A stretch of DNA of 26,881 nucleotides from an uncultured bacterium (lineage in GTDB: Bacteria > CAIJMQ01), in the NCBI GenBank assembly GCA_964573245.1, contig CAZNJA010000015.1, positions 1 to 26,881 of the forward strand, in the 5' to 3' direction. Below, piece after piece: positions 12,103 through 26,881 of the stretch. Each line of letters opens with the position of its first letter. The stretch's first letter is position 1. The position numbers and the translations under genes were made by a program. Below the pieces are notes generated by a model that was not told where the DNA came from, made no database searches, and saw only the letters and a program-made list of their open reading frames with translations.

Positions 12103-12174
12103 CGGTTATCGAAAAAAAGAATACGGTTATCGGTTTTCGTAGTAACGATAACCTAAAACCGAACACCAAAAACC
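12103..12174. repeat. Intergenic hairpin of inverted 7-nt repeats (CGGTTAT family)
   Basis: CGGTTAT CGGTTTT CG ... CG ATAACCT AAAACCG AACACCA AAAACC. Confidence 0.75.
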
Positions 12175-12189
12175 TGATTTTATAAAAAT

Positions 12190-13647
12190 ATGAATAACAG
12201 AAGTTTGCTTTATCGATTAATATTGGTAGTAATTGTCTGTGGACTTGCTTTCTGGAGTATGTATCCGCCTCAAGAGAAAATAAACAGAGGACTCGACCTG
12301 CAGGGTGGAATACATATGGTCTTGGGCGCGAATCTTGATAAAGTTCCCACTATGAATATGACTGAGGAAGGTTTGCAGGCAAAGACATTGGAAGAACTGC
12401 GAACATTGTCCGGACAGTTGGGAACGGATTACAGAGATAAAAACAAAGACCGTCTTGTTCAAGAAATCCTTCAAGTTCAGAAAAACAGAAGAAAACAAGC
12501 AGTTGATAGGGCTCTGGAAATCATAAAAAACAGAATAGACGAGTTCGGCGTTGTAGAACCGCAAATACAAAAACAAGGCGCAGACCAAATTGCGGTGCAA
12601 CTTCCCGGGGTGGTTGATACCGAAGAAGCGTTAGAAGTAGTTAGCAAGGTTGCACATTTGGAGTTTAAATTAGTTGAAGCGGACAAAAATTACAATTCCG
12701 ATTTAATAGAAAAGGCAAAAAAAGGAGAAATTCCACCGAATTTGGAACTTAAATATTTGATGGATGAGGATACAGGAAAGCCGGCCGAAGCGTTATTGCT
12801 GCATAAAGAAGTGTCTCTTACAGGCGAGTATCTTACCAATGCATATGTCGGTTTTGGCTGTTTGGGTATGCCTGAAGTTGATTTGCAGTTTGTTAGTAGA
12901 GGAGCGCGGATTTTTTCAAGGTTGACAGGCGAGAATGTGAATAAGAGATTGGCAATTCTTCTTGACGGTAAAGTTCGTTCTGCTCCGAATATAAACGAAA
13001 AAATTTCGGAAGGGAGAGCGAGAATTAGCGGTAGTTTTGATATGGACGAAGCAAGCAGATTGGCTTCGATACTTAGGGCAGGCGCTTTGCCTGTTCCAAT
13101 AGAGGTGTTATCGATTATGAGAGTGGGACCGACGCTTGGCGAAGATTCAATAAGACAAGGATTCAGGGCTGCTGTTTTTGGGATTATATTGGTGGTTTTA
13201 TTTATGACTGTCTATTACGCATTTTCGGGTGCGATTGCGAATTTCGCGCTTTTTTTATGTATGCTTTTGGTTTTGGGGGCATTGGCGGGACTTCGCGCTA
13301 CTTTGACTTTGCCGGGAATTGCCGGATTGGTTTTGACTATAGGAATGAGCGTGGATGCTAATGTCTTAGTATTCGAAAGAATAAGAGAAGAACTTGCCAA
13401 GAACAAGACAATTCGAGCCTCGGTAGATGCGGGTTATAATAAAGCGCTTATTACTATTGTCGACGCGAATGTTACAACGCTTATTTCTGCTTTGGTCCTG
13501 TTCTATTTCGGCACAGGTCCGATAAAAGGTTTTGCGGTTGTTTTATCTATCGGAATAATTGCGAGCATGTTTACCGCTTTGGTTGTTACAAAACTAATTT
13601 TTGATTATTTGATATACGTGAGAAAAATAAATAGATTGAGTATATGA
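12190..13647 (+). CDS. secD: Protein translocase subunit SecD
   Basis: GLDLQGG, RIDEFGVVEP, LRAGALP, VGPTLG, TLTLPGIAG, GMSVDANVLVFERIREE, DANVTT. Confidence 0.97.
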   Translation: MNNRSLLYRLILVVIVCGLAFWSMYPPQEKINRGLDLQGGIHMVLGANLDKVPTMNMTEEGLQAKTLEELRTLSGQLGTDYRDKNKDRLVQEILQVQKNRRKQAVDRALEIIKNRIDEFGVVEPQIQKQGADQIAVQLPGVVDTEEALEVVSKVAHLEFKLVEADKNYNSDLIEKAKKGEIPPNLELKYLMDEDTGKPAEALLLHKEVSLTGEYLTNAYVGFGCLGMPEVDLQFVSRGARIFSRLTGENVNKRLAILLDGKVRSAPNINEKISEGRARISGSFDMDEASRLASILRAGALPVPIEVLSIMRVGPTLGEDSIRQGFRAAVFGIILVVLFMTVYYAFSGAIANFALFLCMLLVLGALAGLRATLTLPGIAGLVLTIGMSVDANVLVFERIREELAKNKTIRASVDAGYNKALITIVDANVTTLISALVLFYFGTGPIKGFAVVLSIGIIASMFTALVVTKLIFDYLIYVRKINRLSI

Positions 13648-13660
13648 AACGATATAATAA

Positions 13661-13742
13661 CGGTTATCGGTTATCGGTGTTCGGTTTTCGCAAAGAGTCT
13701 TTAACGCAAACCGCAAACCGTCTTCTTTTTTTCCGAAAACCG
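13661..13742. repeat. Intergenic hairpin of inverted 7-nt repeats (CGGTTAT family)
   Basis: CGGTTAT CGGTTAT CGGTGTT CGGTTTT CG ... CG CAAACCG CAAACCG .. AAAACCG. Confidence 0.8.
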
Positions 13743-13771
13743 TCTGTTGTCTTTAGTCTGGAGTTACAATT

Positions 13772-14659
13772 ATGAAATTCTTAAGAGACACGAACATAGA
13801 TTTTATGAAATATAGGAAGTTCGCTTTTATTGCGTCTTCTATTTTTGTTCTTATTGGTCTTATCAGTTTCTTTTTAAGAGGCGAAGCAAACTTCGGTATT
13901 GATTTCACCGGCGGGACGCTGGTCAGATATAGATTCGCAGAAGCGATAAATACGGGCGATGTGAGAAATTCTTTATCTGAAGCAGGACTTGAAAAAAGCA
14001 CTATCCAGTCTTATGACAACGGGGAAGGGATCCTTATAAAAACAGCCGGCGAAGCAAGAAAGGAGATTCAAAAAATTATCAACGATAAGTTTTCATCTTT
14101 TTCCCCGGTTGTGGAAGAAGAAATCTCGATAGGTCCTGTGGTCGGCAATCTTTTAAAAAGGCAGGCGCTTATCGCTGTGTTTTTTGCTCTAATCGGTATC
14201 CTTATATATACAGCGTGGAGATTTAAATTCGTATTCGGAGTTTCTGCGGTGATTTGTCTTTTTCATGATGTGTTGTTTACTGTCGGAGTATTTTCGTTGA
14301 CACGAAGAGAAATTTCCCTTTCAGTTATTGCCGCTTTCTTAACTATCGTGGGATATTCCTTGAACGATACTATAGTTGTGTTTGACAGGATAAGGGAAAA
14401 CATGAAACTTCATCATAGACATCCTAACATTCCCGAAATAATCAATGCCTCCATTAACCAAACCCTTTCCAGAACAATCATCACTTCTGGCACTACGCTT
14501 ATTCCTGTTCTCGCGTTGTTATTTTTAGGCGGCCAGGTGATAAAAGATTTCGCTTTTGCTTTGATGGTAGGAATAGTGGTGGGAACATATTCGACCATCT
14601 ATATCGCTTCCCCGCTTGTTATAGAGTTGAGCAAATTCTTAAAAACCAAAATCCGCTAA
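13772..14659 (+). CDS. secF: Protein translocase subunit SecF
   Basis: GIDFTGG, IGPVVG, HD, GYSLNDTIVVFDRIREN, QTLSRTIITS, GTYST. Confidence 0.97.
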   Translation: MKFLRDTNIDFMKYRKFAFIASSIFVLIGLISFFLRGEANFGIDFTGGTLVRYRFAEAINTGDVRNSLSEAGLEKSTIQSYDNGEGILIKTAGEARKEIQKIINDKFSSFSPVVEEEISIGPVVGNLLKRQALIAVFFALIGILIYTAWRFKFVFGVSAVICLFHDVLFTVGVFSLTRREISLSVIAAFLTIVGYSLNDTIVVFDRIRENMKLHHRHPNIPEIINASINQTLSRTIITSGTTLIPVLALLFLGGQVIKDFAFALMVGIVVGTYSTIYIASPLVIELSKFLKTKIR

Positions 14660-15256
14660 TTTTTTCATTTCATCCATAACTCTGTCAGAAAACTCTTTGT
14701 ATAGGTCTTTTTTATCTTTGTTTCCCGAGTCCTTGAAATACAGCGGTTTGCCGAATGCAAGCGAAATCTTATGAGTGGTAATCCATTTTTTGTCTCTAGG
14801 GAGCGCCTGTCCGCTGCCTTTTATCAAAACCGGTATTACGGGGACATTTGCCTTGGCGGCTATGAGTCCAACTCCTCTTTCTCCTTCTGATATAGTGCCC
14901 GCGGGACTTCTTGTTCCTTCCGGAAAAAGCAATAATACTTTACCTTTCTTTAAAATTTCCAGAGATTTTTTAAAAGCGCCGATTTGCAACTGTTCTCTTG
15001 AAATCGGTATCGTATTTAATCTTTTTATAATCCAGGAGAAAAAACCAAGTTGAAACAACTCTTCTCTTGCCAAAAAATAAATCTGTCTGGGTGATGCTGT
15101 ACCCGCTATTGCAGGGTCAAGATAACTCTCGTGATGCGCCGCCAAAATCACACCGCCTTTTTGTGGAATGTTCTCTTTGCCTTTTACTTCCCATCTGAAA
15201 AGTATCTTAAAAATGGGCCTAAGCACAATATGCGCAACAGCGTAAAGTATGTTCAT
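14639..15256 (-). CDS. plsC: 1-acyl-sn-glycerol-3-phosphate acyltransferase
   Basis: HESYLD (HX4D), FPEGTRS, VPVIPV; 3' end overlaps secF. Confidence 0.9.
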   Translation of the reverse strand: MNILYAVAHIVLRPIFKILFRWEVKGKENIPQKGGVILAAHHESYLDPAIAGTASPRQIYFLAREELFQLGFFSWIIKRLNTIPISREQLQIGAFKKSLEILKKGKVLLLFPEGTRSPAGTISEGERGVGLIAAKANVPVIPVLIKGSGQALPRDKKWITTHKISLAFGKPLYFKDSGNKDKKDLYKEFSDRVMDEMKKLADFGF

Positions 15257-15267
15257 AACACTACCTT

Positions 15268-15393
15268 TGGATACTAGATACTTGATTCTGGATTCTCGTT
15301 AATAAATTCTCTTTCAGTTGTTTCTACGAGTATCCAGTATTTTTTATTTGTTTTATTAGTTACTAGTATCCGGTATCTAGAATCTAGCATCCA
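15268..15393. repeat. Intergenic hairpin of inverted 7-nt repeats (GATACT/AGTATC family), inverted homologue of 5353-5442
   Basis: GGATACT AGATACT TGATTCT GGATTCT ... AGTATCC .. AGTATCC GGTATCT AGAATCT AGCATCC. Confidence 0.85.
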
Positions 15394-15403
15394 TTTGTTT
15401 TAG

Positions 15404-16801
15404 CTATTTTCCTATACAAAACCTTGCAAAAATCCTGTCCAGTATATCATCCTCAACCGTTTCGCCTAAAATCTTTTTAAACGAATTCAGAGATTCTTTC
15501 AAGTCAACGGCAATAAACTCTTCGCTTAAATCTTTGCTTGAGGTCTCCAAACTCTTTGCAAGCCCTTCATAAGCGCTTTTTAGAGCTTCTCTGCTTCTGG
15601 CGTTTACCATAATGGTACTTTCACCCATTTTTACACCACCCTCAAGCACTATTTTCTTGATAAACTTCTTAATCGAATCAATGCCTTTCCCTTTCAGCGC
15701 CGATATCTTCAAAACCTTTTTATTCCCGATTAAACTTTGAAGCTTACTTTTTGATATTTTCTCAGGCAGGTCAACCTTATTGATAAGGCAAATCATCTTT
15801 TTATGTTTTATTATTTTAACAATATCCCTGTCTTGGCTTGATAAAGCTTTTGTCCCGTCAACCATAAATAACACAAGGTCTGCATTTGCCAAATATTCTT
15901 CAACTTTTTTCAGCGCGGCTTTATCAATTATATCCTCTATTTTCTTAAACCCTGCAGTATCAACTATTTTTACGGGTATCCCGCCGATATTAATCCATTC
16001 CTCAATAATATCCCGCGTTGTTCCGGGAATGTGCGTGACTATTGCCCTTTCCTTCCCTACCAAACGGTTAAGTAAAGTGGACTTGCCGACATTGGTTTTC
16101 CCTATTAAAAGCACCAACACGCCGTCCCGCAAAACTTCACCTTCCCTGCTTTGCTTCATTAATTTTTCGGTTTCGGATTTAAGTTTCTTTATCCTTTTTG
16201 TGAATTCGTTCTTCTTTATGGTATCAATATCCTCTTCGGGAAAATCCAGCCCCGCTTCAATAAAAGTTAATATCTCCAGAGTTTCATCTTTTAATTCTTT
16301 TATCTTTTCGGAAAACGCACCTTTAAGTTGCGACATTGCCGACTTAAGAGCAAGTTCCGTTTTCGCTTCCACGATATTTATTACAGCTTCGGCTTGAGCC
16401 AAATCGAGCCTTCCGTTTAGGAACGCTCTTTTTGTGAATTCACCAGGTTCTGCAAGTCGTGCACCGCATCCAAGCACCGCATCAAGTATTCTCCTAAGCG
16501 GTAATATTCCCCCGTGACAGTTTATCTCCGCAATATCCTCTCTTGTATAACTCTTCGGCTTCCTCATAATAGAAAGAATTACCTCATCTAAGATTTCTTT
16601 ATTTCGGATAATATGTCCATAATGAATAGTATATGAAGGAAGTTTTGAAGGAGGAACGCCGTTTTTACCTTTGAATAACTTATCCGCAATCGCGAGCGCC
16701 TTATCTCCTGATAAGCGGACTATTCCTATTCCGCCTTCGCCAAGAGGAGTTGATATTGCGGCAATCGTATCGCTTTTGGCTAATGTGAATTTAGTTTTCA
16801 T
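15404..16801 (-). CDS. mnmE: tRNA modification GTPase MnmE (TrmE)
   Basis: DTIAAISTP, PKSYTRED, GEFTKRAFLNG, GKTNVGKS, GTTRD, DTAG, NKVD, C-terminal FCIGK. Confidence 0.98.
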   Translation of the reverse strand: MKTKFTLAKSDTIAAISTPLGEGGIGIVRLSGDKALAIADKLFKGKNGVPPSKLPSYTIHYGHIIRNKEILDEVILSIMRKPKSYTREDIAEINCHGGILPLRRILDAVLGCGARLAEPGEFTKRAFLNGRLDLAQAEAVINIVEAKTELALKSAMSQLKGAFSEKIKELKDETLEILTFIEAGLDFPEEDIDTIKKNEFTKRIKKLKSETEKLMKQSREGEVLRDGVLVLLIGKTNVGKSTLLNRLVGKERAIVTHIPGTTRDIIEEWINIGGIPVKIVDTAGFKKIEDIIDKAALKKVEEYLANADLVLFMVDGTKALSSQDRDIVKIIKHKKMICLINKVDLPEKISKSKLQSLIGNKKVLKISALKGKGIDSIKKFIKKIVLEGGVKMGESTIMVNARSREALKSAYEGLAKSLETSSKDLSEEFIAVDLKESLNSFKKILGETVEDDILDRIFARFCIGK

Positions 16802-16830
16802 ATACTTTAACTAAAAAGATTGTGTTGCTC

Positions 16831-16860
16831 GGATTCTAGATACTTGATACTAGATTCTAG
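16831..16860. repeat. Downstream 7-nt repeat arm of the four-helix-bundle element
   Basis: GGATTCT AGATACT TGATACT AGATTCT AG; contains the gene's TAG stop (16850-16852). Confidence 0.85.
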
Positions 16861-17233
16861 TTTTATGTAACAAATCTACAGATTTAATAAAATTGTTTAT
16901 CATTTTACCAAGATATTTATACTCCATGCAGAGATGTTTATATTTTTCTTTATTAATTAATGATCTAGTTTCGTATAAAGTGTCTAAATGGTCTATAGTT
17001 TCATCGCAGGAAGCTAAAGCGTAGATGAGGAATTTTATAAATTCTTGTTTATATCTGCGTCTTCCAAAACCTTCAACTATATTGCCTCTAATAGATTTGC
17101 TTGACCTTCTTATTTGACTGCCTTCTTCATACATCTCAAATTTCGGAAATTTTAGACTAATCTCGTGAATTTCTTTGGCTAATGTCCGTGCTTTCTTATA
17201 AATATCCAAATCCCTATAACTCTTATACGCCAT
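16850..17233 (-). CDS. Four helix bundle protein (23S rRNA IVS protein family, Avd-like fold)
   Basis: [58 protein letters not shown]. Confidence 0.92.
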
Positions 17234-17249
17234 TTTTTTATCTTTTATT

Positions 17250-17418
17250 AGTATCTACGAGTATCTGGTATCCAGAATCTAGTATCAGTTCTTCTTTTAC
17301 TAGTATCCAGCATCAGTTTTTAGTCTTTCTATCTTCTACGAGTATCTAGAATCAAGAATCTAGTATCGTTTTCGTTTTTTATCTTCTACTAGTATCTGGA
17401 ATCTGGTATCTAGCATCA
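17250..17418. repeat. Upstream 7-nt repeat arms of the four-helix-bundle element (four blocks)
   Basis: Blocks of AGTATCT/GGTATCC/AGAATCT/AGCATCA separated by pyrimidine-rich spacers; complementary to 16831-16860; overlaps the cmk stop. Confidence 0.85.
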
Positions 17419-18117
17419 AGCTTTCTCATTTATTATAGATATTACTTTCTCTATCACTTCCTCTATTGTCATCCCCGTGGTATTGACAGGGATGGCGTCC
17501 TCCGCTTTCTTCAGCGGCGCGATTTCTCTTGTGAAATCCTTATTATCTCTTTCTTTTATATCCTGCTTAATTTTTTCAAGTTCGCTTTCCATCCCTTTAT
17601 TCTTCTCCTCAATCCATCTTCTTTTTGCCCGTTCTTCAATTGATGCATCAAGATAAAACTTATAAGGCGCATTGGGAAATACAACCGTTCCTATATCCCT
17701 GCCCTCTACAACGATTCCGCCATCTGAACCGACCTGCCTCTGCATCTTTTTCATCTTATTGCGTACCTCTTTGTTCTTACACACCCACCATATATTATTA
17801 GTCACTTCTTCAGTCCGTATCTTATCGGTTACTTCTTCTCCGTCCACCCAAAGCCTCATCCCCTTCTTATCATCCCCGCCCGCCAAATCTTGTTGGGAGG
17901 GTTTTTTCACTATTAAAATTGTTTCCTTTACCATTTCAATCAGTCTCTTTTTGTCTTTTTCCGTTATACCTTCCGTTAGCGCCTTCAAAGTCATTGCCCG
18001 ATACATTGCGCCGGTGTCCAAATACAAAAACCCCAAGCGTTTGGCAACCTCTTTTGCAACGGTTGTCTTTCCAGCTCCCGCAGGCCCGTCAATCGTGATA
18101 ATAGTGTTCTTTTTCAT
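17416..18117 (-). CDS. cmk: Cytidylate kinase
   Basis: ITIDGPAGAGKTT, YLDTGAMYRA, VVEGRDIGTVVFP, RDNKD..R..APL; SD AAGGAG. Confidence 0.97.
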   Translation of the reverse strand: MKKNTIITIDGPAGAGKTTVAKEVAKRLGFLYLDTGAMYRAMTLKALTEGITEKDKKRLIEMVKETILIVKKPSQQDLAGGDDKKGMRLWVDGEEVTDKIRTEEVTNNIWWVCKNKEVRNKMKKMQRQVGSDGGIVVEGRDIGTVVFPNAPYKFYLDASIEERAKRRWIEEKNKGMESELEKIKQDIKERDNKDFTREIAPLKKAEDAIPVNTTGMTIEEVIEKVISIINEKA

Positions 18118-18225
18118 TATGCTCCTTGGTTTGACTTATTGTTGTTTAAGAGCTTATATTATACAGGAAAAGGGGGGAGGTAGGGAGTAGGTTGTACTTT
18201 TTTAAACTAGTTAATTGTTAGAAGT

Positions 18226-18246
18226 AAATAAAAACGGTCAGGTCTT
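18226..18246 (+). repeat. Junction motif, copy 1: AAATAAAAACGGTCAGGTCTT
   Basis: 20/21 identical to 21166-21186; related to 18511, 19830, 20416, 22653, 25900. Confidence 0.75.
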
Positions 18247-18247
18247 C

Positions 18248-18331
18248 CCCCGCAGATTTGTTAAAGCAAATCTAGACGCGGGGACAAGCGCATAGTTTTA
18301 CTCACCATGTTCGTAAAACTGGCAATGGGGG
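18248..18331. repeat. Two tandem bulged hairpins of the CCCCRYAG..CT-N4-RYGGGG family
   Basis: CCCCGCAG ATTTG..CAAAT CT AGAC GCGGGG (18248-18283) and CATAG TTTTAC..GTAAAA CT GGCA ATGGGG (18291-18330). Confidence 0.7.
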
Positions 18332-18363
18332 TAATTAAAACGTGGTTTTAATTAGGAGGGGAT

Positions 18364-18516
18364 ATGAAAAAGAACAAAATTATCGGCGTACTGCTACTGG
18401 TTTTAGCGGTTGCTACGATTACGGGCATGATTATTAACAAGGATGCCTTTTGGACTATTTATAATTGGGCAGTAATAATATTTTCTGTGGTAAGCGGAAT
18501 TGTTTTGTTAAAATAA
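18364..18516 (+). CDS. 50-aa two-helix membrane peptide, copy 1 (not in ORF track)
   Basis: GGAGG SD; MKKNKIIGVLLLVLAVATITGMIINKDAFWTIYNWAVIIFSVVSGIVLLK; intact paralogue at 20570-20722. Confidence 0.8.
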   Translation: MKKNKIIGVLLLVLAVATITGMIINKDAFWTIYNWAVIIFSVVSGIVLLK

Positions 18517-18557
18517 AAAGTGTTAGGGCTTGAAATGAAATTTGGTTTTCGTATGAT
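18511..18557 (+). promoter_or_regulatory. Junction motif copy (AAATAAAAAGTGTTAGGGCTT) continuing into a putative sigma70 promoter
   Basis: 18/21 match to 21166-21186; TTGAAA(18530)-16 nt-TATGAT(18552). Confidence 0.5.
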
Positions 18558-18574
18558 TGGGAGAAAGGTAGAGA

Positions 18575-19819
18575 ATGAAAAAAAAGATTTTTATTTTAGT
18601 TTTAGTTGTATTTGGGATTGCTTTGCTCTTTATTGCTAATAAATTCCTCAATAAGAATATTGGTAATTATAATTTACCAACTCCGACAGAAAAATTCAAA
18701 ACAGGTGAAGAAATAAGTTTTAAGTTGAGTGAAAAGGAAAATCTCGAGTTTGTTTGGGTAGAAGCTTTACAAATGTGGGTTGGCAAATATGAGACAACTT
18801 TAGGACAATATGAGGTTTTTAATCAGGGTGTTGCTCACTCTGGTTGGAAAACATATATAGACGAAAAATATATCAATAAATCTTTGAGTGCTGAGGAACA
18901 AAAACAAATGAGGCAACATCCTGTTTTGATGATAGGTTGGAATGAAGCTAAAACGTATTGTAAGGAACTTAATAAAAGATTTATAAATTATTTGCCCAAA
19001 GGTTATATTTTCCGTCTCCCAGTAGAGAAGGAATGGGAAACTTTTGCTCGGTGTGGTGATAATCGCTTATATCCTTGGGGTAATGAATGGCCACCTAAAC
19101 CAATGGCTGATGGTGTATCGCCCAATCTTGATGGCAATAGAATATATTGCGCAAAACCATGGGAATGCAATAGTTTTGTTACTTGGTATGAAGATGGTTG
19201 GAAAACTTCATGTCCGGTGCAAAAAAGCGGAATGAATGAGTGGGGTATTTATGGAGTTGCAGGAAATGCGGAAGAATGGTGTGAGGATTGGTATAAAGGA
19301 AAAGTATACAGAGAAAATAGACTGCGTTTATTAAAAGGAAGTACTTGGAGAACAGATAATAGACCGTATTTTTGTAAAATTTCCTATAGAGGTGCTGTGG
19401 AAACGAGTTCTTGGTATGTCCCCGTGCTATCTTGGTTTAATAACAAAGTTAAGAAAAACCGTGGTCATTCAGTAACAGGAATTCGGGTGGTTATAGGGAA
19501 AAAATATATAGTAGGAGAAAAGGTAGCGAATGTAAAAGAAACAAAAATAACACTTGAGGGTAAAGCTTTAATCAACCTTATCAGAACATGTGAAAGGTTA
19601 TATTTTGCCGAAAATAAGGGTTACTATACAGATAAATGGGAAGATATAAGCGGAGCTGTAGATATGTCAGGGAACAAATATTTCATAACACATCCTAAAC
19701 TCACCGTGTCTGGAGAAGGGAAATCTGCCACATTCACTGCTACTGTCACAGGTTCAGGGAAGGCGGAAGGAATTAGTGTAAGTATAGATCAGAACGGGAA
19801 TATAACTGTGACGAAATAA
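18575..19819 (+). CDS. Membrane-anchored FGE-sulfatase/SUMF1 (C-type lectin fold) domain protein with a C-terminal pilin-like domain
   Basis: N-terminal TM; GKYETT..QY, HPV..IGWNEAK.YC, FRLP.EKEWE, YPWG, NEWGIYGVAGNAEEWCEDW, GIRVV. Confidence 0.8.
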   Translation: MKKKIFILVLVVFGIALLFIANKFLNKNIGNYNLPTPTEKFKTGEEISFKLSEKENLEFVWVEALQMWVGKYETTLGQYEVFNQGVAHSGWKTYIDEKYINKSLSAEEQKQMRQHPVLMIGWNEAKTYCKELNKRFINYLPKGYIFRLPVEKEWETFARCGDNRLYPWGNEWPPKPMADGVSPNLDGNRIYCAKPWECNSFVTWYEDGWKTSCPVQKSGMNEWGIYGVAGNAEEWCEDWYKGKVYRENRLRLLKGSTWRTDNRPYFCKISYRGAVETSSWYVPVLSWFNNKVKKNRGHSVTGIRVVIGKKYIVGEKVANVKETKITLEGKALINLIRTCERLYFAENKGYYTDKWEDISGAVDMSGNKYFITHPKLTVSGEGKSATFTATVTGSGKAEGISVSIDQNGNITVTK

Positions 19820-19841
19820 CTAAGGAGACTAAAAACGGTCA

Positions 19842-19957
19842 CCCTCCACAGTTTTGCTTGTGCCCTTAGAAATCGCGGATGTGATTTCAAGGACTTTAGT
19901 CCCGGGAATTCTTCAAGTTCCACGGGGCAAAATTGGATAAGGGGACTTTGGGTTTTG
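19842..19957. repeat. Large multibranch member of the bulged-hairpin family, followed by GGGGACTTTGGGTTTTG
   Basis: CCACAG TTTTGC ... GCAAAA TT GGAT AAGGGG; 17-nt tail identical to 21734-21750. Confidence 0.65.
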
Positions 19958-20004
19958 AAATGATACAAATTTGGTTTTCGTATAATTGATAGGAGATAAA
20001 TTAA

Positions 20005-20421
20005 ATGAGAAAAGTTCTATTCATAACACTTTTAGTTATTTTTCTATGTGGTTGTGGCGAAAGCCCTGTAAACAATACTTCAAATTCAATTTTTGTGATT
20101 GCCCCATATAATTATGTTGGTGCATGGGTTTTTGATGATGCAAGTCGGGGCTTAACACGAGAACCATTTGTTGCAGGGATTCCCGGGATAATAGATAAGT
20201 TAGTAGAAGATATACCAGAGGCAGAGAAGGGTTTTCGTCTTTACTTTTCAGCGCAGCCGTTTCCTGACCATACTCACACACTTGTATGGATACGAGGGGA
20301 TTCTACTGGTAATTGGTATGAATGCCCTCAATACGAAATGGAAGGGTGGCTATGCCCTGCTATGTTTAAGTATTTTAATGAAGCACCCAAGGTTATATAC
20401 TTTAAAGCTGAAAAGAAATAA
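20005..20421 (+). CDS. DUF6717-like protein with a predicted lipoprotein signal
   Basis: NSIFVIAPY...WVFDD...GL.REPFVAG, FSAQPFP, GNWY, EGWLCPAMFKYF; N-terminal FLCGC lipobox-like sequence. Confidence 0.7.
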   Translation: MRKVLFITLLVIFLCGCGESPVNNTSNSIFVIAPYNYVGAWVFDDASRGLTREPFVAGIPGIIDKLVEDIPEAEKGFRLYFSAQPFPDHTHTLVWIRGDSTGNWYECPQYEMEGWLCPAMFKYFNEAPKVIYFKAEKK

Positions 20422-20438
20422 AAACAGTCCCAAATCTT
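20416..20438 (+). repeat. Junction motif variant AAATAAAAACAGTCCCAAATCTT
   Basis: 23/23 identical to 22653-22675; contains the TAA stop of the upstream gene. Confidence 0.8.
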
Positions 20439-20451
20439 GAAAAGGAATGGA

Positions 20452-20536
20452 CCTCGCATCGTAAGACGTCGGGAAAATTTTGAAGAAATTTCTGAAAAAT
20501 TTCCTGAATAGATATTTTCCTCGATACTCTGCGGGG
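20452..20536. repeat. Palindromic element; reverse complement begins CCCCGCAG
   Basis: CCTCGCA..TCGGGAAAAT..ATTTTCCTCGA..TGCGGGG; homologous to 6703-6786 in inverted orientation. Confidence 0.7.
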
Positions 20537-20569
20537 TAATTTAAACGCGGTTTAAATTAGGAGGTTAAT

Positions 20570-20722
20570 ATGAAGAAGAACAAAGTTATTGGCGTACTGC
20601 TACTGGTTTTAGCGGTTGCTACGATTGGGGGCATGATTATTGACAATGATATCTTTTGGACTATTTATAATTGGGCAGTAATAGTACTTTCTGTGATAGG
20701 CGGTATTGTTTTATTGAAATAA
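20570..20722 (+). CDS. 50-aa two-helix membrane peptide, copy 2 (not in ORF track)
   Basis: GGAGG SD; MKKNKVIGVLLLVLAVATIGGMIIDNDIFWTIYNWAVIVLSVIGGIVLLK; 41/50 aa identical to copy 1. Confidence 0.8.
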   Translation: MKKNKVIGVLLLVLAVATIGGMIIDNDIFWTIYNWAVIVLSVIGGIVLLK

Positions 20723-20726
20723 AATT

Positions 20727-21167
20727 ATGATAAATGAATTTATGCAAGCGGCTATAGAAGAAGCTAAAAAAGGATTAAGTGAGGGAGGGATACCCATAGG
20801 TGCCGTTATTGTTTACGGCGGGAAGATAATCGGACGGGGGCATAACAGGCGTGTGCAGAAAGGAAGCGCTATTTTGCACGCCGAGATGGATGCTTTTGAA
20901 AACGCAAAGCGCCGGCCGGTATCAGTGTATAGAGAGTGCGTTTTATATACTACGCTTTCACCATGCCCGATGTGTTCGGGCGCCATAATATTGTATGGTA
21001 TCAAGCGGATTGTTATCGGCGAGAATAAGACGTTTATGGGAGACGAAGAATATCTGGGGTCAAAAGGTGTAAATGTGGAAGTGTTACAGGATGAAACGTG
21101 CATAGCGATGATGCGAAAATTTATCAGCGAAAATCCAAAGCTTTGGAACGAGGATATAGGAGTTTAA
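20727..21167 (+). CDS. Zinc-dependent nucleoside/cytosine deaminase
   Basis: EGGIPIGAV, GHNRRVQ, HAE, LSPCPMC, WNEDIG (yeast-type cytosine deaminase-like). Confidence 0.9.
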   Translation: MINEFMQAAIEEAKKGLSEGGIPIGAVIVYGGKIIGRGHNRRVQKGSAILHAEMDAFENAKRRPVSVYRECVLYTTLSPCPMCSGAIILYGIKRIVIGENKTFMGDEEYLGSKGVNVEVLQDETCIAMMRKFISENPKLWNEDIGV

Positions 21168-21186
21168 ATAAAAAGGGTCAGGTCTT
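21166..21186 (+). repeat. Junction motif copy AAATAAAAAGGGTCAGGTCTT
   Basis: Overlaps the deaminase stop; 20/21 identical to 18226-18246. Confidence 0.75.
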
Positions 21187-21189
21187 GTT

Positions 21190-21678
21190 ATGATTGAGAG
21201 AAGGAAAGAAAGTGAAGTGAAAATATGGATTTTCTTTGTGCTTTTTCTGCTCTATAACATTATCAGCGGGGTTATTTTTTGCTTTACATCAGGTGGATGG
21301 ACAGTGTTATCCGTCTTATCTTTTGTGGGGAATGGCTATCTTTTAATTACAGTTATAGTGTTCATAAGAATATTAATCTTGCAAATATCTAACAGGCGGT
21401 ATATCTCCATTCCCAAAAGAAAACTCTGCATTTTAGCTGTGCTTCAAATACTTGCGATACTATTTAATTATGGAGATTGTGGAGACACATCAGGTAGTTA
21501 TAGTTTTTTCGAAAGGATATTAGGCATAAATGGATGGACTGCGTGTAAAGAACCCCTTTTGGGGGTATTGGCAATTCCTATCTCAATAAGCTTTTTTACA
21601 ATATATTTTCTGTTTCTGATTTATGTTTTATTTTTGATATTGTTGTTCAAAGCAAGAAAAACAGAGTCCAAAACTTAA
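21190..21678 (+). CDS. Hypothetical membrane protein with about 4 TM segments
   Basis: Four hydrophobic segments and a GDCGD loop motif; true start may be GTG at 21217. Confidence 0.65.
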   Translation: MIERRKESEVKIWIFFVLFLLYNIISGVIFCFTSGGWTVLSVLSFVGNGYLLITVIVFIRILILQISNRRYISIPKRKLCILAVLQILAILFNYGDCGDTSGSYSFFERILGINGWTACKEPLLGVLAIPISISFFTIYFLFLIYVLFLILLFKARKTESKT

Positions 21679-21688
21679 TATTTAACAC

Positions 21689-21750
21689 CCCCACAGTCCG
21701 CCTCGCCAAACTTTGGCGGGCGAGACTAGACGCGGGGACTTTGGGTTTTG
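21689..21750. repeat. Bulged hairpin with a nested CGCCAAA-C-TTTGGCG palindrome
   Basis: CCCCACAG TCCGCC ... GGCGAGA CT AGAC GCGGGG ACTTTGGGTTTTG. Confidence 0.75.
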
Positions 21751-21778
21751 GATAATTAAAAGCGGAGGAAGGTGCATT

Positions 21779-22651
21779 ATGAATAGATTTATTCAATTGG
21801 CAATCGCGTTTTTATTCGTAACAGCGGTACTGATGTTTGGATGTATTCTTCCGTCATTTGCCGCTGATTTGCAAGTGTTCTCCAATGCGAAATTGATAAA
21901 TAATCCAGCGAATGACGGAGACAGCTTTCTTGTAGAAGCTAATGGAAAATCTTTACATATTTGCCTTTACTTTGTTGATTGTCCCGAAAGTTCTGCCAAC
22001 TCTGATGCCGATGCCCAGCGGGTCCGAGAACAGACGCGTTATTTCGGATTGTCTGATGTATCGCGTACCATCCATTTTGGTAAAGAAGCAAAAGCTTTTA
22101 CCGAACACGCTCTTGCACAACCTTTTACTATTTATACGGCTTTCGCGAATACCTTGGGAAGGTCATCTGTAGGCCGAGTATATGGGTTTATTACTACCTG
22201 TGACGGAAAAGATTTGGCGAGTCTACTCGTTAAAAATGGTTTTGCCCGTGCTTACGAAACGGGTAGGCAGACACCTGATGGATTATCGCGCGACGAAATG
22301 AGCGCTAGATTTCGGGATTTTGAGGTTTCGGCGATATTAAAACGTGTTGGCATTTGGTCACAGAGCGACCCGGATAGGATTGCCGAACTTCGCGCTAAAC
22401 AACGCAACGAAGAACAGGAATTAGATGAATTAAAAGAACAAATTAAAGAATCTTTATCTCCCAAGAGTCCACTTGACCTGAATACTGCTAATAAAAAAGA
22501 ACTTATGTCTGTTAAAGGAATTGGTCCTGTTCTTGCCGAAAGAATTATAGCCGCTCGTCCCTATAAAACCGTGGACGCTTTACTGAAGGTAAGAGGAATC
22601 GGCCCTAAAAATCTTGAAAAGTTTCGTCCTTATTTTATAATAGGCAAATAA
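21779..22651 (+). CDS. Secreted thermonuclease (SNase)-fold protein with a C-terminal ComEA-type helix-hairpin-helix domain
   Basis: Signal peptide; NDGDSF, LYFVDCPE, GRVYG, LLVKNGFAR; LDLNTA..EL..VKGIGPVLAERII..RPY..L.KVRGIG; SD GGAGG. Confidence 0.85.
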   Translation: MNRFIQLAIAFLFVTAVLMFGCILPSFAADLQVFSNAKLINNPANDGDSFLVEANGKSLHICLYFVDCPESSANSDADAQRVREQTRYFGLSDVSRTIHFGKEAKAFTEHALAQPFTIYTAFANTLGRSSVGRVYGFITTCDGKDLASLLVKNGFARAYETGRQTPDGLSRDEMSARFRDFEVSAILKRVGIWSQSDPDRIAELRAKQRNEEQELDELKEQIKESLSPKSPLDLNTANKKELMSVKGIGPVLAERIIAARPYKTVDALLKVRGIGPKNLEKFRPYFIIGK

Positions 22652-22652
22652 T

Positions 22653-22675
22653 AAATAAAAACAGTCCCAAATCTT
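22653..22675 (+). repeat. Junction motif variant AAATAAAAACAGTCCCAAATCTT
   Basis: Identical to 20416-20438; starts immediately after the nuclease stop. Confidence 0.8.
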
Positions 22676-22694
22676 AAAAAAGGAGGGAAATAGA

Positions 22695-22895
22695 ATGAGC
22701 AAAGTTGAAAAGTTGGTGAATGTCGGCACTCCATTTTTATTCGGTATGGTTCTTATTTTTGGCGGGCTGATTATGGGAAAGAATCCCGAAAAGATATTAT
22801 ATGCATTGATGGCAATCTGCACGGGTTTTATTTGTCTGTCTATCGCTTCAGTATGTTCAATTTTAGTAAGGATTTTAGAAAATAAAAAGGACTGA
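22695..22895 (+). CDS. Small 2-TM hypothetical protein
   Basis: Strong SD AGGAGG; two hydrophobic segments. Confidence 0.7.
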   Translation: MSKVEKLVNVGTPFLFGMVLIFGGLIMGKNPEKILYALMAICTGFICLSIASVCSILVRILENKKD

Positions 22896-22910
22896 AAAGG
22901 GAGGTGTTTT

Positions 22911-23153
22911 ATGACGATTGATGTTATAAAGCAGGTGTTTTTTTGGTGTTTTGTTATTAATATGGGTATGCTTTTGTGGTGGTTTCTGGCTATCATATTA
23001 ATGCATGATTTTGTTTACAGAATGCATAGTAAGTGGTTCAAGATGTCTGTGGAAAAGTTTGATTCTATTCATTATTTGGGGATGGCTATTTTTAAGATAC
23101 TTATATTTGTCTTCAATCTTGTTCCATACATTGCATTAAGTATTGTTAGATAA
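22911..23153 (+). CDS. DUF6868-like small membrane protein
   Basis: FFWCFVINMGMLLWW...H.KWFKMS.EKFDSIHY.GMA.FKI....FNLVPYIAL; SD GGAGG. Confidence 0.8.
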   Translation: MTIDVIKQVFFWCFVINMGMLLWWFLAIILMHDFVYRMHSKWFKMSVEKFDSIHYLGMAIFKILIFVFNLVPYIALSIVR

Positions 23154-23168
23154 AATAAAATACCTAAC

Positions 23169-23212
23169 CCCCATAGTCCGCCATAAATACAAGGGCGAGA
23201 CTAAATATGGGG
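23169..23212. repeat. Bulged hairpin, close relative of 21689-21737
   Basis: CCCCATAG TCCGCC ... GGCGAGA CT AAAT ATGGGG. Confidence 0.75.
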
Positions 23213-23258
23213 TAAACGCAGATTTGGTTTTTATAAAATTGAAAGCTGGGAGGAGAAA

Positions 23259-25235
23259 ATGGCAAAAGAAAAAAACTTTGTTCGGATTTTCAAAACAGTA
23301 CAGGAATTGAAGTATGGAGCAAAATTCTACAAAGCTGATTTACATTTTCATACTCCTGCTTCTGAAGATGCACGGGGCAAAAACCGCTACAATTTCAATC
23401 CATACAAAGTAAAATATCCAACGAAAAAAAGAGGTTCTGATTATCGTAAAGCGGTAGAGGAGATACAGAAAAAGATTTTGGCTGATGCACGTAAAATTGC
23501 ATCGGATATAGTGCGCCGCTTTATTGAAGTAAATCTGTCAGTAGTTGCTGTTACCGACCACAATGGAATCGGGACGATTTGGAATGATGATGAATCCGGT
23601 AAGAGATTAATGGATTTAGCCGCTCCTACTTGGTATGAACTTATTGACGATGAGGCGCAGAAAATCAACGATAATGCTGGTAAGAAAGTGTTAACCATTT
23701 TACCCGGGACCGAAATTAGCACGACCGGAATTCATATTTTAGCTATTTTTCCGCCGCAAAGTCCTAGAAGAAAAATTCATTTCATAATCTGTGACCTCTT
23801 GAATGAAGTGGGCTTTGCTATTGATGATTGGGGTAAAAATCCCAAAGTTGGGACAGTGAGCCCATTTAACACAATTAGTCTTATTGTTAAGAAGGGAGGT
23901 GTTCCAATACTGGCGCATATTGATGGCAGCGACCAGGCAATTTTGAGATTATATAGAATAAATAGCGGTGCAATGAAGAATGTGCTTCTCCATAAGCAAT
24001 TATCTGCTGTTGAGATAGTAAAGCCGTCACGTTTTACAAAAAAAGATAATAAGTTGAAAAAACCACTTAAAGACTGGATGGATGCATTGCGATTGAAAGA
24101 AGGATTATCGCCCCTTGCTTTTTTTCAGGGTTCTGATGCACATGATATTCCCACTATTGCTAAGAGGCATACATATATCAAGATGACCGAGCCGTCTTTT
24201 TCGGGTGTTAAGACGGCAATTAAAATGCCTTCTTCTCGACTTAGAATTTCCGGCGTAGATACATCGCAGTTTGAAGGATTATACATTCACAGCTTTGCAG
24301 TAAATAATCCGTTCTTTGGTAAGCAGATTGTGAGGTTTAATCGTCATGCGAATTGTGTTGCTGGTAACAAAGGTGCGGGAAAATCGTATGCTTTCAATTT
24401 GATGCAAGCAGTCACCGATACCAACCTGCCTAATGTTGAGGGGGAAGTAACTCTTTTGCTTGAGAAGATAAAGAATGGAACATCACAATTTTATGCATTT
24501 TCGCGTAGTGAGAAAGGAGGCAGTGGCAGGTTATATCTGCTAAATCGCAAAACAGGTTCAGCCCAAAAAATTGGTTTGGAAAAAGCAGATGAGTTGCACA
24601 TAAGACCAAAATTTTATGATCCAGAGAGAATGGAAGGTATAGTTTCTTCAAAGGAAGAATTAAATGCTTTTTTGATTAAACATTTTGGGAAGCCCTCAGT
24701 GAATAATATCAATTGTTTTAATAGTATGTTTTCAATTCCAAATTTTTTGAAAGAGCAAAATACTCCTTTGTTTGTACTTGAATCAAATCAAGAGGGGTAC
24801 AATCTCTCTGTTAATGCTCAGTGGCATATTAACAAAATGAAAACGAGGGATTTCTTTACCCTGAACAAAAGCCTGCGAAGGACTGTGTTGATGTGTGTAA
24901 TTATAATTATCAGTGAGTTTGGTCCAGTTATCATCGATGCACCAGAAGAGCATTTTGATAATGAGGATATTGCAAATTTTCTTGTGCCTATAATCAAAAG
25001 ATATAAAGATTACCGACAAGTAATTCTATTTACTAATAATCCATTATTGGCTGTTAATACAGACCCCGACAATTATATTCTGTTGAGAACTCAAGGAGAA
25101 AAATTTAAAAATTTGGTGTCTGGTTTTGCTATTGATGATGAACAACAAAAGACTCAGCTGTTAAATATAATGGAAGGGAATCTATATTCTTTCAATAAAC
25201 GTGCTGAGAAATATGAAAGCAGTGATGAATTATAA
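23259..25235 (+). CDS. PHP-domain phosphoesterase fused to an ABC/SMC-type ATPase (TrlF/Ppl-like)
   Basis: DLHFHTP, VTDHN, GTEI...HIL, AHID, GSDAH; Walker A GNKGAGKS; Walker B PVIIDAPEEHFDN; C-terminal MEG...F.KR..KY. Confidence 0.8.
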   Translation: MAKEKNFVRIFKTVQELKYGAKFYKADLHFHTPASEDARGKNRYNFNPYKVKYPTKKRGSDYRKAVEEIQKKILADARKIASDIVRRFIEVNLSVVAVTDHNGIGTIWNDDESGKRLMDLAAPTWYELIDDEAQKINDNAGKKVLTILPGTEISTTGIHILAIFPPQSPRRKIHFIICDLLNEVGFAIDDWGKNPKVGTVSPFNTISLIVKKGGVPILAHIDGSDQAILRLYRINSGAMKNVLLHKQLSAVEIVKPSRFTKKDNKLKKPLKDWMDALRLKEGLSPLAFFQGSDAHDIPTIAKRHTYIKMTEPSFSGVKTAIKMPSSRLRISGVDTSQFEGLYIHSFAVNNPFFGKQIVRFNRHANCVAGNKGAGKSYAFNLMQAVTDTNLPNVEGEVTLLLEKIKNGTSQFYAFSRSEKGGSGRLYLLNRKTGSAQKIGLEKADELHIRPKFYDPERMEGIVSSKEELNAFLIKHFGKPSVNNINCFNSMFSIPNFLKEQNTPLFVLESNQEGYNLSVNAQWHINKMKTRDFFTLNKSLRRTVLMCVIIIISEFGPVIIDAPEEHFDNEDIANFLVPIIKRYKDYRQVILFTNNPLLAVNTDPDNYILLRTQGEKFKNLVSGFAIDDEQQKTQLLNIMEGNLYSFNKRAEKYESSDEL

Positions 25236-25320
25236 TAATTTGTACAGAAGAAGACTTGTAAAGACTAAAAGGTGCAGGCAAATTCATTTTTTGTGTAATT
25301 GAAAAAGAAAAGGGGGAGAC

Positions 25321-25878
25321 ATGAAGATATTCAGAAATATAGGTTCGCTGGCTTTTGTGCTTGGCTTGTTCGTTGTAGTGTTTGCGGGGGTCCCTTGGCA
25401 TGTAATAGTTTTCGATGACCCGGTTGTGCCATTGTGGCTGAGGACAGCTATTTTCTGTCTTCTTGGAGGCATCCTTTTAGTTCTGTTAACAGTGGCTCTT
25501 GAACAGAGAAAATACAAAACATTAGGGAAGGGGCCATTGTCCGGTGAATCCGGCGGCAAGGTTATGCTTTTGAATTCCGAAGAAGTACCTGACCGCAAAG
25601 CGCAGCAAGTTCTCGGGCTTGTTCAGGGACATACTGTGTTCGCTATCTGGCTTGGAAAGGATTTATCTGCGATGATAAGGCTTATTCTTGGCGGAGAATT
25701 AACCGAATACACAGAGATGATGGGAAAAGCCCGGACAATGGCAACTAATAGGATGGTTGCCCAAGCGTCTAAAATGGGAGCGGATGCAGTAATAAATGTC
25801 CGTTATATGACTACCAGTGTTGTGGGAAGTGCGGCTGAACTTTTGGTTTATGGAACAGCTGTCAAGCTAAGCAAATAG
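25321..25878 (+). CDS. YbjQ/UPF0145 (putative heavy-metal-binding) domain protein with 2 N-terminal TMs
   Basis: LGLVQG, GGELTEYTEMM.KAR..A..RM..A..MGADAVINVRY, ELLVYGTAVK. Confidence 0.88.
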   Translation: MKIFRNIGSLAFVLGLFVVVFAGVPWHVIVFDDPVVPLWLRTAIFCLLGGILLVLLTVALEQRKYKTLGKGPLSGESGGKVMLLNSEEVPDRKAQQVLGLVQGHTVFAIWLGKDLSAMIRLILGGELTEYTEMMGKARTMATNRMVAQASKMGADAVINVRYMTTSVVGSAAELLVYGTAVKLSK

Positions 25879-25989
25879 GTTTTGATATCTGTTGGCTGCA
25901 AAAGGTCAGGCCTTTAAATGACACATGACCCTTGTTGGATGAAAAAATTAACGAAATTATGAAATTTCGGATAAATCGGAGGATAGGAA

Positions 25990-26202
25990 ATGTCAATAAA
26001 AATTGATTATGAAAAATGTTGTTGGAAAGACGGCAAATGCACGTCTTGTGAATGCGGCGGGGAATGTGATGGTTGTGTTAGCGCCTGTCCGGTTGACGCG
26101 CTGGAACGGAAAATGAAATTGGAATATGATGAGGAAGCGTGCACTGATTGCGGGGCGTGTGTTGACGCCTGCGAACACAAAGCAATTACGTTGATTGAAT
26201 AA
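25990..26202 (+). CDS. Cys-rich 4Fe-4S dicluster ferredoxin
   Basis: CDGCVSACP and CTDCGACVDAC motifs; SD GGAGG. Confidence 0.88.
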   Translation: MSIKIDYEKCCWKDGKCTSCECGGECDGCVSACPVDALERKMKLEYDEEACTDCGACVDACEHKAITLIE

Positions 26203-26218
26203 TTGGAGGGGAATTAGT

Positions 26219-26716
26219 ATGAAAAAAACTCTTGTAATATTAATGTTGGGGATTTTTATCGCTTTACAATGTGGGTGTGTTAATGAAAAGAGCTATCTGG
26301 AGGGTGACGTATGGACCCTGGTTGATTCAATAAGCAAAGAGTCGAGAGAAGCGTTTTTGGCAGGTGATATTGATAAAGCAATGGAATGTTATTGCGAAGA
26401 TGTCGTAGTAATGTCTGATTTTCATATAACGGTAAAAGGCAAGTCTAAACTTAAATACATGTTGAAGAGTATCGAATCAACGGATATGAGGTTTAAATCG
26501 CTTGAGTCGGAAAGTATTGAAGTGCAACGCAGTGGTGATTTTGTTTATGAAACCGGGAGGTTTAGCCAGACCGAGGTTATGACGGATTCAGATGAGCTTT
26601 TGGAACAAACCGGGAAATATTTAACGATTTGGAGAGAAGGGGCCGATGGAAAGCTGAAGATAGCTGTCGAAGTATATAGTAATAACGAAAATCCTGTTAA
26701 AAAGGGGAATGCTTAA
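26219..26716 (+). CDS. DUF4440/SnoaL (NTF2-like) domain lipoprotein
   Basis: MKK + hydrophobic + QCGC; AFLAGD..Y.ED.V, SGDFVYETG, GKYLTIWR...DG.LKI; SD GGAGG. Confidence 0.8.
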   Translation: MKKTLVILMLGIFIALQCGCVNEKSYLEGDVWTLVDSISKESREAFLAGDIDKAMECYCEDVVVMSDFHITVKGKSKLKYMLKSIESTDMRFKSLESESIEVQRSGDFVYETGRFSQTEVMTDSDELLEQTGKYLTIWREGADGKLKIAVEVYSNNENPVKKGNA

Positions 26717-26792
26717 TTCATATATCCATATTTTTGACTTCTAATCGGTTTCTGTAGTAAAGTAAAAATCAACAAATTATAGGAGACCTTAA

Positions 26793-26881
26793 ATGAAAAT
26801 GGAGTTAAAAAAGAATTGTGCTTATTCTTTACTTGTCCCTACAAGTATGGGTGTTCGCCTTATTCCCGTTGATAGACAGCC
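26793..26881 (+). CDS. Truncated N-terminus, possibly of a PfkB-family sugar kinase
   Basis: SD AGGAG; MKMELKKNCAYSLLVPTSMGVRLIPVDRQ, open to the window edge; product recalled from the PTSMGVR motif only. Confidence 0.45.
   Translation, partial: MKMELKKNCAYSLLVPTSMGVRLIPVDRQ

Follow-up and report, generated by a model that had tools for sequence, protein, structure and literature searches.

Arrays in which a promoter at the head reads into co-oriented, mostly small and unrelated genes are best known from integrons, including the sedentary chromosomal integrons and the clusters of attC sites lacking integron integrases (CALINs), where a repeated site lies at or over each stop codon and where content varies among relatives, with its boundaries at that site. 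Three further systems invite comparison. Integration hot spots of genomic islands, which grow by tandem accretion, hold variable segments between att direct repeats of 20-90 nt, with an integrase at one end; the bacterial interspersed mosaic elements (BIMEs) and repetitive extragenic palindromes (REPs) of E. coli, like the neisserial intergenic mosaic elements (NIMEs) and minimal mobile elements of Neisseria, are mosaic intergenic repeats; and the pdif modules of Acinetobacter plasmids are discrete gene modules between 28-nt XerC-spacer-XerD dyads (11-6-11), often of alternating orientation, on which the housekeeping Xer proteins act in trans. Here we analyse a gene array downstream of cmk on contig C15 (CAZNJA010000015.1, 26,881 nt, the whole of which we call the window) of an uncultured bacterium, together with a short motif, M, that recurs at the joints between its genes. 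The source genome, G000, comprises 1.46 Mb in 110 contigs, and was compared with three other species of the same genus (G001-G003, of which G001 is recorded as a Candidatus Omnitrophota metagenome-assembled genome, MAG) and with a further genome of the family (G004). Omnitrophota are abundant uncultured bacteria with small genomes, among which gene exchange is barely known, and those parts of the literature that our searches reached hold no description of such an array in this group.

As judged from its sequence, the locus is not an integron, since it lacks the two components that define one, an integron integrase and attC sites that fold. By analogy, however, it would work like a cassette array: a promoter stands at the head, the units all face one way and each of them ends in a repeat. 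Where integrons have IntI and attC, the site here is 21-26 nt long, unfolded and of two length variants; moreover, conserved backbone genes are interleaved with the others, and no reshuffling of their order was seen. We propose that in this genus of Omnitrophota a one-directional array headed by a promoter lies downstream of cmk, that its backbone genes (deaminase, DUF6868 and ferredoxin) alternate with accessory genes that differ by species, and that gene units would come and go by recombination at direct-repeat modules within tiny spacers. The commonest of these modules would be M, which is unstructured and lies on or just after the stop codon, with the unit boundary at its TCTT end. We give a probability of about 0.5 to this reading, in which the accessory genes form a hypervariable array and short direct repeats, most often M, serve as the places where recombination adds or removes units. 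It builds on direct observations (the motif itself, its restriction to the locus, its conservation, the variable gene content and breakpoints that coincide with M), from which we infer, at even odds, that M is the actual crossover point.

M consists of an A-rich lead followed by [CG][AG]GTC(AGG/CCAAA)TCTT and has two forms, which differ by a 2-nt change of length in the middle. M1, the lead plus GGTCAGGTCTT, stands at 18226 and 21166 and in degenerate form at 18511 and 25896, and M2, the lead plus CAGTCCCAAATCTT, stands at 20416 and 22653. When the window was searched for AAATAAAAASRGTC with at most one mismatch, four matches were found, all on the + strand (18226, 20416, 21166 and 22653), against 0.23 expected, and none of 100 shuffles reached four. 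The whole 1.46 Mb genome holds five copies, four of them in the array and the fifth inside a 1279-aa ORF (open reading frame) on contig C19, so the motif is not equally common after core genes. Perfect copies of lead and core together also number five in G000 (four in the array, one on C40), and a relaxed scan (A-rich lead, at most two substitutions) gave 20 sites, where mononucleotide shuffles had 6.6 on average. On C19 (11091-16737), three ORFs of 185, 320 and 91 aa come after the 1279-aa ORF, whose N-terminal sequence makes this a candidate Cas12a-cas4-cas1-cas2 locus.

A preliminary description, made from the window alone, had listed five sites of the motif; four of these stand within one mismatch, while that at 18511 proves to be a degenerate copy. 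The degenerate forms it had placed near 19830, 25266 and 25900 were located at 19826, 25259 and 25896. It had also reported that the motif contains or abuts the upstream TAA in four cases, and this is so at four of the five named sites (18514-16, 20419-21, 21165-67 and 22649-51), the copy at 18226 having no + strand gene upstream. Its 14 consecutive + strand genes of unrelated function are matched by the ORF list and by Pfam: 14 consecutive + strand ORFs run from 18364 to the window end, and their Pfam families are mutually unrelated or absent. The bulged hairpins it noted at other junctions were recovered (DNA folds of 18226-18290, 21684-21748 and 23160-23218, with z = -3.6, -3.4 and -4.1 and, in all three, a bulge of 4 nt in the 3' arm), as was the duplicated gene unit, in which a small-peptide gene occurs as sp1 and sp2 (18362-18518 against 20568-20724, 90% identical, plus a 32-nt upstream module at 91%).

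The 18 kb upstream of the array are collinear on the 593-kb contig of G001 and 71-85% identical with the congeners, whereas the array differs in every congener, with only three to four units shared; gene order is thus not fixed among relatives. The common units are sp-deaminase, DUF6717, sTM66-DUF6868 (sTM66 being a 66-aa transmembrane, TM, protein) and ferredoxin, and the deaminase occurs in all four genomes of the genus, without sp in G002. In G001 the array holds an opposite-strand pair of GGDEF and solute-binding-protein (SBP) genes, a methylase-Mrr fusion, two zinc-ribbon ORFs, an AAA_14-DUF4143 ATPase and sp-deaminase, and further a beta-lactamase-family protein, sTM66, DUF6868 and CNNM. 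The array of G003 holds five ORFans, DUF6717, sp, an NYN protein, sp-deaminase, HMA and DUF3795, and another of its contigs carries ferredoxin, a 563-aa ORF and the gene that is truncated at the window end. In G002 the GGDEF+SBP pair of G001 recurs, along with four other ORFs, the deaminase, ferredoxin and two ORFans. The SNase and PHP-ATPase genes of the window were not found in any of the four other family genomes, nor was the FGE domain, for which only the C-terminal ~90 aa of the window's protein were matched in these relatives. Of the cmk neighbourhoods in other genomes, that of G004 is cut short by the contig end at cmk itself, and those of G005-G007 lack an array.

The motif recurs in these arrays. 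Copies in the congeners are oriented as the genes are, and the 13 M1-type and 14 M2-type copies from four species and two metagenome contigs, 27 aligned in total, all share one orientation. Over AACAGTCCCAAATCTT, nine of the 14 M2 copies show no mismatch, set against a divergence of 15-29% in the neighbouring core DNA. The orthologous copies of M1 behind the deaminase have drifted apart among the species. All four exact M2 13-mers (AGTCCCAAATCTT) of G001 lie on its 593-kb contig, within 2.6 kb of the locus, with three single-gene segments between them, and the extended M1 form CAGGTCTTGMAATGA scarcely occurs elsewhere either. At further exact GGTCAGGTCTT sites of G001-G003 the A-rich lead is mostly missing; in six such regions, only one site had it. 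The M2 19-mer occurs in 13 stretches of our genome contig collection, more than once only on the G001 contig and outside the genus only singly. In metagenomes it was found in 17 stretches. Two of these, L038 and L046, match the window at 100% identity, one (L032) comes from the population of G001, and L042 and L037 proved informative as relatives; the remaining 12 have no similarity to the array beyond the motif and were treated as chance. L046 and L038 span the junctions at 20416, 21166 and 22653, although they may share the sample of the MAG. Among viral contigs an M2 18-mer had no match, and four matches to an extended M1 18-mer (contigs of 28-56% GC), without flanking features, were read as chance.

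Breakpoints in gene content coincide with M, both between species, where the arrays were compared by pairwise blastn, and between strains. The block of homology that holds the deaminase ends 0 to +7 nt from the end of M1 when it crosses the motif, and otherwise within the motif's first 9 nt, and the gene that follows differs in the four genomes (TM162, encoding a 162-aa TM protein, a beta-lactamase-family gene, an HMA gene and ferredoxin). Other blocks begin just past M: sp-deaminase at M2 end +5 and the ATPase at M2 end +1 (both G001), sTM66 at M2 end +3 (G000) and ferredoxin at M1 end +1/+2 (G002). For the strain-level comparison, Logan contigs from four salt-marsh runs were mapped onto the array region, and array stretches without contig cover in runs X3 and X4 were left out of the evidence. 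On an X2 contig, whose two sides match at 95% and 91% identity, position 21170 is followed by 57 other letters and then by 22695, so that 1524 nt (TM162 and SNase) are missing; the edges of this joint lie in M1 and just after M2. Another strain joint leads from 20441 to 18362 with nine letters (TGGAGGTTA) between, which is the G001-type junction of M2, ribosome-binding site (RBS) and sp, and the 122-nt hairpin-rich spacer after M2 is therefore an insertion. A loose end also starts at 20415, the base before M2.

Several points weigh against our reading. The 14 junctions of the window (head included) hold only four strict and four degenerate copies of M, and the 3' ends of the ferredoxin, DUF6868 and TM162 genes are without it. 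The shared units keep the same relative order in all genomes, with no shuffling seen, and because they are collinear everywhere, differential loss from a larger ancestor may account for the pattern. The ORFs of the relatives are longest-ORF picks rather than gene predictions. No recombinase adjoins M in G000-G003, no excised circle was seen, and no empty site against a filled one was obtained with readable sequence. In the counts of block ends, the same few junctions recur across genome pairs, and the independent types of junction number about seven. The intergenic spacers are so small (22 nt at 21168-21189, for example) that any intergenic breakpoint falls near M. Since so few independent junctions are reused and the spacers are so short, the coincidence of breakpoints with M appears suggestive rather than decisive.

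The short spacers are also the starting point of a different explanation, that M is an expression signal (a 3'-end or 5'-UTR (untranslated region) RNA element, a processing site or an operator bound by a regulator specific to the locus) maintained by selection, that genes turn over by unrelated means and that breakpoints meet M only because the spacers are tiny. M always reads in the sense direction, lies at stop codons and precedes the next RBS or ATG by 4-45 nt; as the array spacers contain no terminator-like (intrinsic) site, it could plausibly punctuate a polycistronic RNA. At 22653, the M2 copy lies 12 nt beyond the end of a strong promoter-like site (11/12), which would place M2 at the 5' end of an mRNA; the 3' end of the copy at 18511 doubles as a -35 box; and the drift of M1 after the deaminase resembles that of a loosely constrained signal. 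However, M is confined to one locus, with four of five genome copies there, and recurs as the same 21-26-nt sequence after unrelated, species-specific genes that must have arrived separately. Moreover, its position relative to promoters and RBS varies between copies, and M has no fold. We regard an expression signal as unlikely, though it and the hairpin repeats discussed below are the main rivals of our reading. The 11/12 site is TTGAAA-16-TATAAT at 22614-22641 (+), the best promoter match of the region, within the 3'-terminal part of the SNase gene, and transcription from it would begin at about the M2 before sTM66. A role of M as a general sigma-70 -35/UP element was rejected, several copies lying 4-20 nt from the next start codon.

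Our preferred reading, recombination at short direct repeats, divides about evenly between two mechanisms. In one, exchange among the repeat modules would be driven by homology, with excision between direct repeats followed by Campbell-type re-insertion; in the other, a site-specific recombinase would act in trans. The direct repeats are of unequal length (21-190 nt), and homology-driven exchange therefore fits as well as a site-specific system. An sp gene with its 5' module (~190 nt, 90%) flanks FGE-DUF6717 in G000 and an NYN gene in G003, an 89-nt block of hairpin plus M2 (96.6%) flanks one zinc-ribbon gene in G001, and two copies of the head promoter S, a ~40-nt repeat, flank the GGDEF+SBP pair of G001. 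The head promoter sequence is kept at the array head of G001 (two copies), G002 and G003. The GGDEF+SBP pair (a GGDEF+GAF sensor and a solute-binding protein) forms a 3-kb opposite-strand module. Its identity between G001 and G002, 97.2-97.5%, exceeds the 90% of the deaminase and suggests that the module was recently exchanged.

That M is the recognition site of a dedicated trans-acting recombinase, either of the 384-aa integrase family met on contig L037 or XerC/D, is a sharper sub-case of our reading that we consider less likely than not. It would explain why M2 is near-invariant across lineages whose flanking DNA has diverged by 15-29% and why the boundary is fixed, just after TCTT; genes that all face away from a promoter at the head also follow the logic of an integron, and G000 has XerD and XerC/D-type proteins. 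L037, a metagenome contig of 1115 nt, carries in order a TM gene, an exact M2, a hairpin, 175 nt and the first 66 residues of a tyrosine integrase, whose full-length relatives are ~384 aa long and carry PF00589 (P0003 is 94% identical over the 66 aa). However, this 66-aa fragment as query found no homologue in any of nine genomes of the class, the closest genomic relatives of the integrase (L055-L057) have no M nearby, and L037 shares no other DNA with the arrays; in viral contigs the integrase search gave a single match at 28% identity. A single-site enzyme does not predict flanking repeats of other sequence and length, such as the sp, 89-nt and S repeats, and M1 and M2 differ by 2 nt in mid-motif length. 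The more specific proposal that M2, (A)AAAACAGTCCCAAATCTT(A/G)A, is the recombination site of an undescribed integron-like gene-capture system, in which one-gene units, each ending in the short unfolded site, would follow a head promoter and an L037-type integrase or XerC/D would act in trans, is doubtful.

Two of the known systems can be set beside the array. Like pdif modules, the array has discrete gene modules between short recombination-site candidates, and XerC/D are present in G000; unlike them, all 27 copies of M are direct and no 11-6-11 dyad is visible. As in genomic-island hot spots, its variable segments lie between direct repeats, and one truncated contig, L037, has an integrase gene next to the repeat; unlike in them, the segments are single genes of 0.4-1.5 kb without an integrase of their own, the locus has no tRNA gene that could serve as target, and several flank sequences are in use.

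The preliminary description had inferred a non-integron gene-capture array and advised looking for a Y1/RAYT (REP-associated tyrosine transposase) or tyrosine recombinase adjoining the motif. Variable content and breakpoints at the motif, in the congener blastn as well as in the X2 contig, lend support to the first part, while shuffling was not seen and the adjoining enzyme was not found: neither a recombinase nor an active HUH enzyme lies beside the motif in G000 or G001, and an integrase stands near it only on L037. The decay it invoked for junctions lacking the motif is not needed, several of them using hairpin or promoter modules in place of M. Its view that attC and an integron integrase are absent agrees with our data. 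The window has no integrase gene; Phage_integrase matches in G000 lie on C13, C42 and C40, and the two full tyrosine recombinases (PF00589) both pass the XerD/XerC cut-offs and reach 140.5 and 136.3 bits with the integron-integrase model TIGR02249, against a cut-off of 265. The congeners carry the same two Xer-type genes and others away from M, and the integrases of G003 (C39, C7) and G004 (C28) have no M nearby. These scores also bear on whether the locus is the remnant of a true integron, a CALIN with very divergent attC sites. Its layout is cassette-like, and the M1 core GTCAGGT fits the consensus GTTRRRY, as quoted in the preliminary description, at 6/7 positions, one relative reading GTTGGGT. 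However, M shows no fold even together with its flanks (z = 0.27 and -1.04), inspection of the flanks showed no inverse-core partner, no systematic search having been made, and the only two full tyrosine recombinases of G000 score below the integrase cut-off. The CALIN explanation is thus close to refuted.

Transposases of the Y1 type are likewise unlinked to M. The sole Y1_Tnp match of G000 is a 436-aa protein without the H-U-H motif, and G001 has none; G002 has four, three with HUH and RAYT-like, and G003 an IS200/IS605 pair including an IS200-like TnpA, neither set being linked to M. The 436-aa protein (C12, L015:1429-2739) combines an N-terminal Y1_Tnp-like domain, a TM segment and a C-terminal domain common to a neighbouring 202-aa protein. 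An IS91-type Y2 transposase was discarded as a candidate, with sub-threshold matches in two of five genomes.

The hairpins at the joints raise the possibility that M is debris, or a preferred target, of the REP- or MITE-like (miniature inverted-repeat transposable element) hairpin repeats of the genus and that the array is a zone tolerant of selfish repeats. Hairpins of the form CCCC(N)YAG-stem-loop-stem-CTR(N)GGGG stand directly after M in at least four places (18246 in the window, G002, L042 and L037) and belong to families dispersed genome-wide; the M2 core resembles the left arm of a dispersed unit, AGTCCCGGAAATCC..., on C26, C40 and C48 GC hairpins come after M1-like sequence, and the genus has intact RAYT-like proteins (G002) and an IS200/IS605 pair (G003). 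However, M is non-palindromic and locus-specific, unlike the hairpins, and both G000, whose Y1-like domain lacks HUH, and G001, which has none, keep perfect copies of M. No H hairpins were found beside the RAYT-like genes of G002 with a simple pattern search. We consider this explanation quite improbable; under recombination at direct repeats, REP/MITE-like bulged hairpins may additionally insert right after M. The likeness to BIMEs and NIMEs lies in spacers made from a few reusable modules (M1, M2, hairpins and a promoter-like module) and in variable content between conserved flanks. Short, dispersed, imperfect palindromes, the trait of REPs and BIMEs, describe the H hairpins and not M, which sits at one locus, and G000 and G001 have no cognate RAYT. 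An Rfam scan of 17000-26881 with E up to 5 returned four chance-level snoRNA/miRNA matches, far below gathering scores.

If our reading is true, the problem addressed by integrons would have been solved a second time and independently, by compact, promoter-driven slots for accessory genes; an integron-like capture system at M2, should there be one, would let the ultra-small genomes of Omnitrophota swap accessory and defence genes. The cargo includes a methylase-nuclease fusion, a Ppl/TrlF-like ATPase, nucleases and many ORFans, and the junction motif offers a PCR or bait handle for recovering the accessory gene pool of the lineage from metagenomes. Should M be only an expression signal or repeat debris, the locus would still be a clean plasticity zone abutting a fully collinear core. 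The features of the array are collected in Table 1.

Table 1. Features of the array and its joints, in window coordinates except for the last row.
Feature	Position	Strand	Basis or remark
Head promoter S, TTGACT-18-TATATT, divergent from cmk, reads into array	18131..18160	+	sigma-70-like consensus match only
M1 copy at array head (AAATAAAAACGGTCAGGTCTT)	18226..18246	+	
Bulged hairpin H directly after M1	18247..18285	+	DNA fold z = -3.6
Second hairpin (CATAGTTTTAC...) and 32-nt 5'-UTR hairpin module, recurring before sp2	18288..18359	+	
sp1, 50-aa TM peptide, paralogue of sp2	18364..18516	+	ORF, Pfam, repeat comparison
Degenerate M1 (AAATAAAAAGTGTTAGGGCTT) holding the sp1 stop codon; 3' end overlaps promoter-like site 18530-18557	18511..18531	+	
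FGE-sulfatase-domain protein, 414 aa	18575..19819	+	Pfam
Partial or degenerate M (GACTAAAAACGGTCA)	19826..19842	+	
Compound REP-like hairpin element; copies dispersed in G000 and relatives	19838..19946	+	
DUF6717 protein, common to G003	20005..20421	+	Pfam, comparison
M2 copy (AAATAAAAACAGTCCCAAATCTT) holding the DUF6717 stop codon	20416..20438	+	
Hairpin-rich spacer, missing in G001 and co-occurring strain	20439..20559	+	
sp2 and CDA-fold deaminase	20570..21167	+	Pfam, comparison
M1 copy; homology with all three congeners stops here	21166..21186	+	
TM162, hairpin 21689-21745, SNase+HHH nuclease; G000-specific	21190..22651	+	
M2 copy; G001 homology block begins 3 nt after	22653..22675	+	
sTM66 and DUF6868, common to G001	22695..23153	+	Pfam, comparison
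Bulged hairpin 23169-23212 and promoter-like module 23219-23245	23169..23245	+	
TrlF/Ppl-like PHP+AAA ATPase, 658 aa	23259..25235	+	scores below curated family cut-offs
Degenerate M (ACTAAAAGGTGCAGGCAAATTC) plus promoter-like module	25259..25305	+	
TM + YbjQ-domain protein	25321..25878	+	Pfam
Degenerate M1 (AAAAGGTCAGGCCTT)	25896..25914	+	
4Fe-4S ferredoxin (common to G002, G003) and DUF4440 protein	25990..26716	+	Pfam, comparison
Start of conserved ORF (359 aa in G003), cut by contig end	26793..26881	+	
Head-promoter copies around GGDEF+SBP module	G001 L011 1855-1895, 4900-4940	reverse complement	G002 module on L013

Some further observations concern the surroundings of the array and other repeats of the genome. 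A MITE-like family in G000, none of whose members lies on C15, has the terminal inverted repeats CCCCGTTAGAGAT...ATCTCTAACGGGG, with 32 paired elements of 50-151 nt and 85 ends; the centres of elements with CCCCGTTAGAGAT ends are variable and often hairpin-rich (C3:26779-26915 and C5:31325-31395, for example). Residues 317-413 of the FGE protein, its C-terminal ~90 aa, form the core of several ORFs of 129-163 aa in all five family genomes. Positions 1-18117 of the window hold core genes, namely an M50 peptidase, UvrD, murB, ftsQ/A/Z, glyA, tgt, yajC, secD/F, a plsC-like gene, mnmE, a gene for a 23S rRNA-intervening-sequence protein (IVP) and cmk. The IVP gene lies at 16850-17233 (-), between mnmE and cmk. 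An IVP-like ORF also adjoins cmk in G003, with mnmE and plsC in a different order; G001 has no IVP gene there, and its cmk and mnmE are ~110 nt apart.

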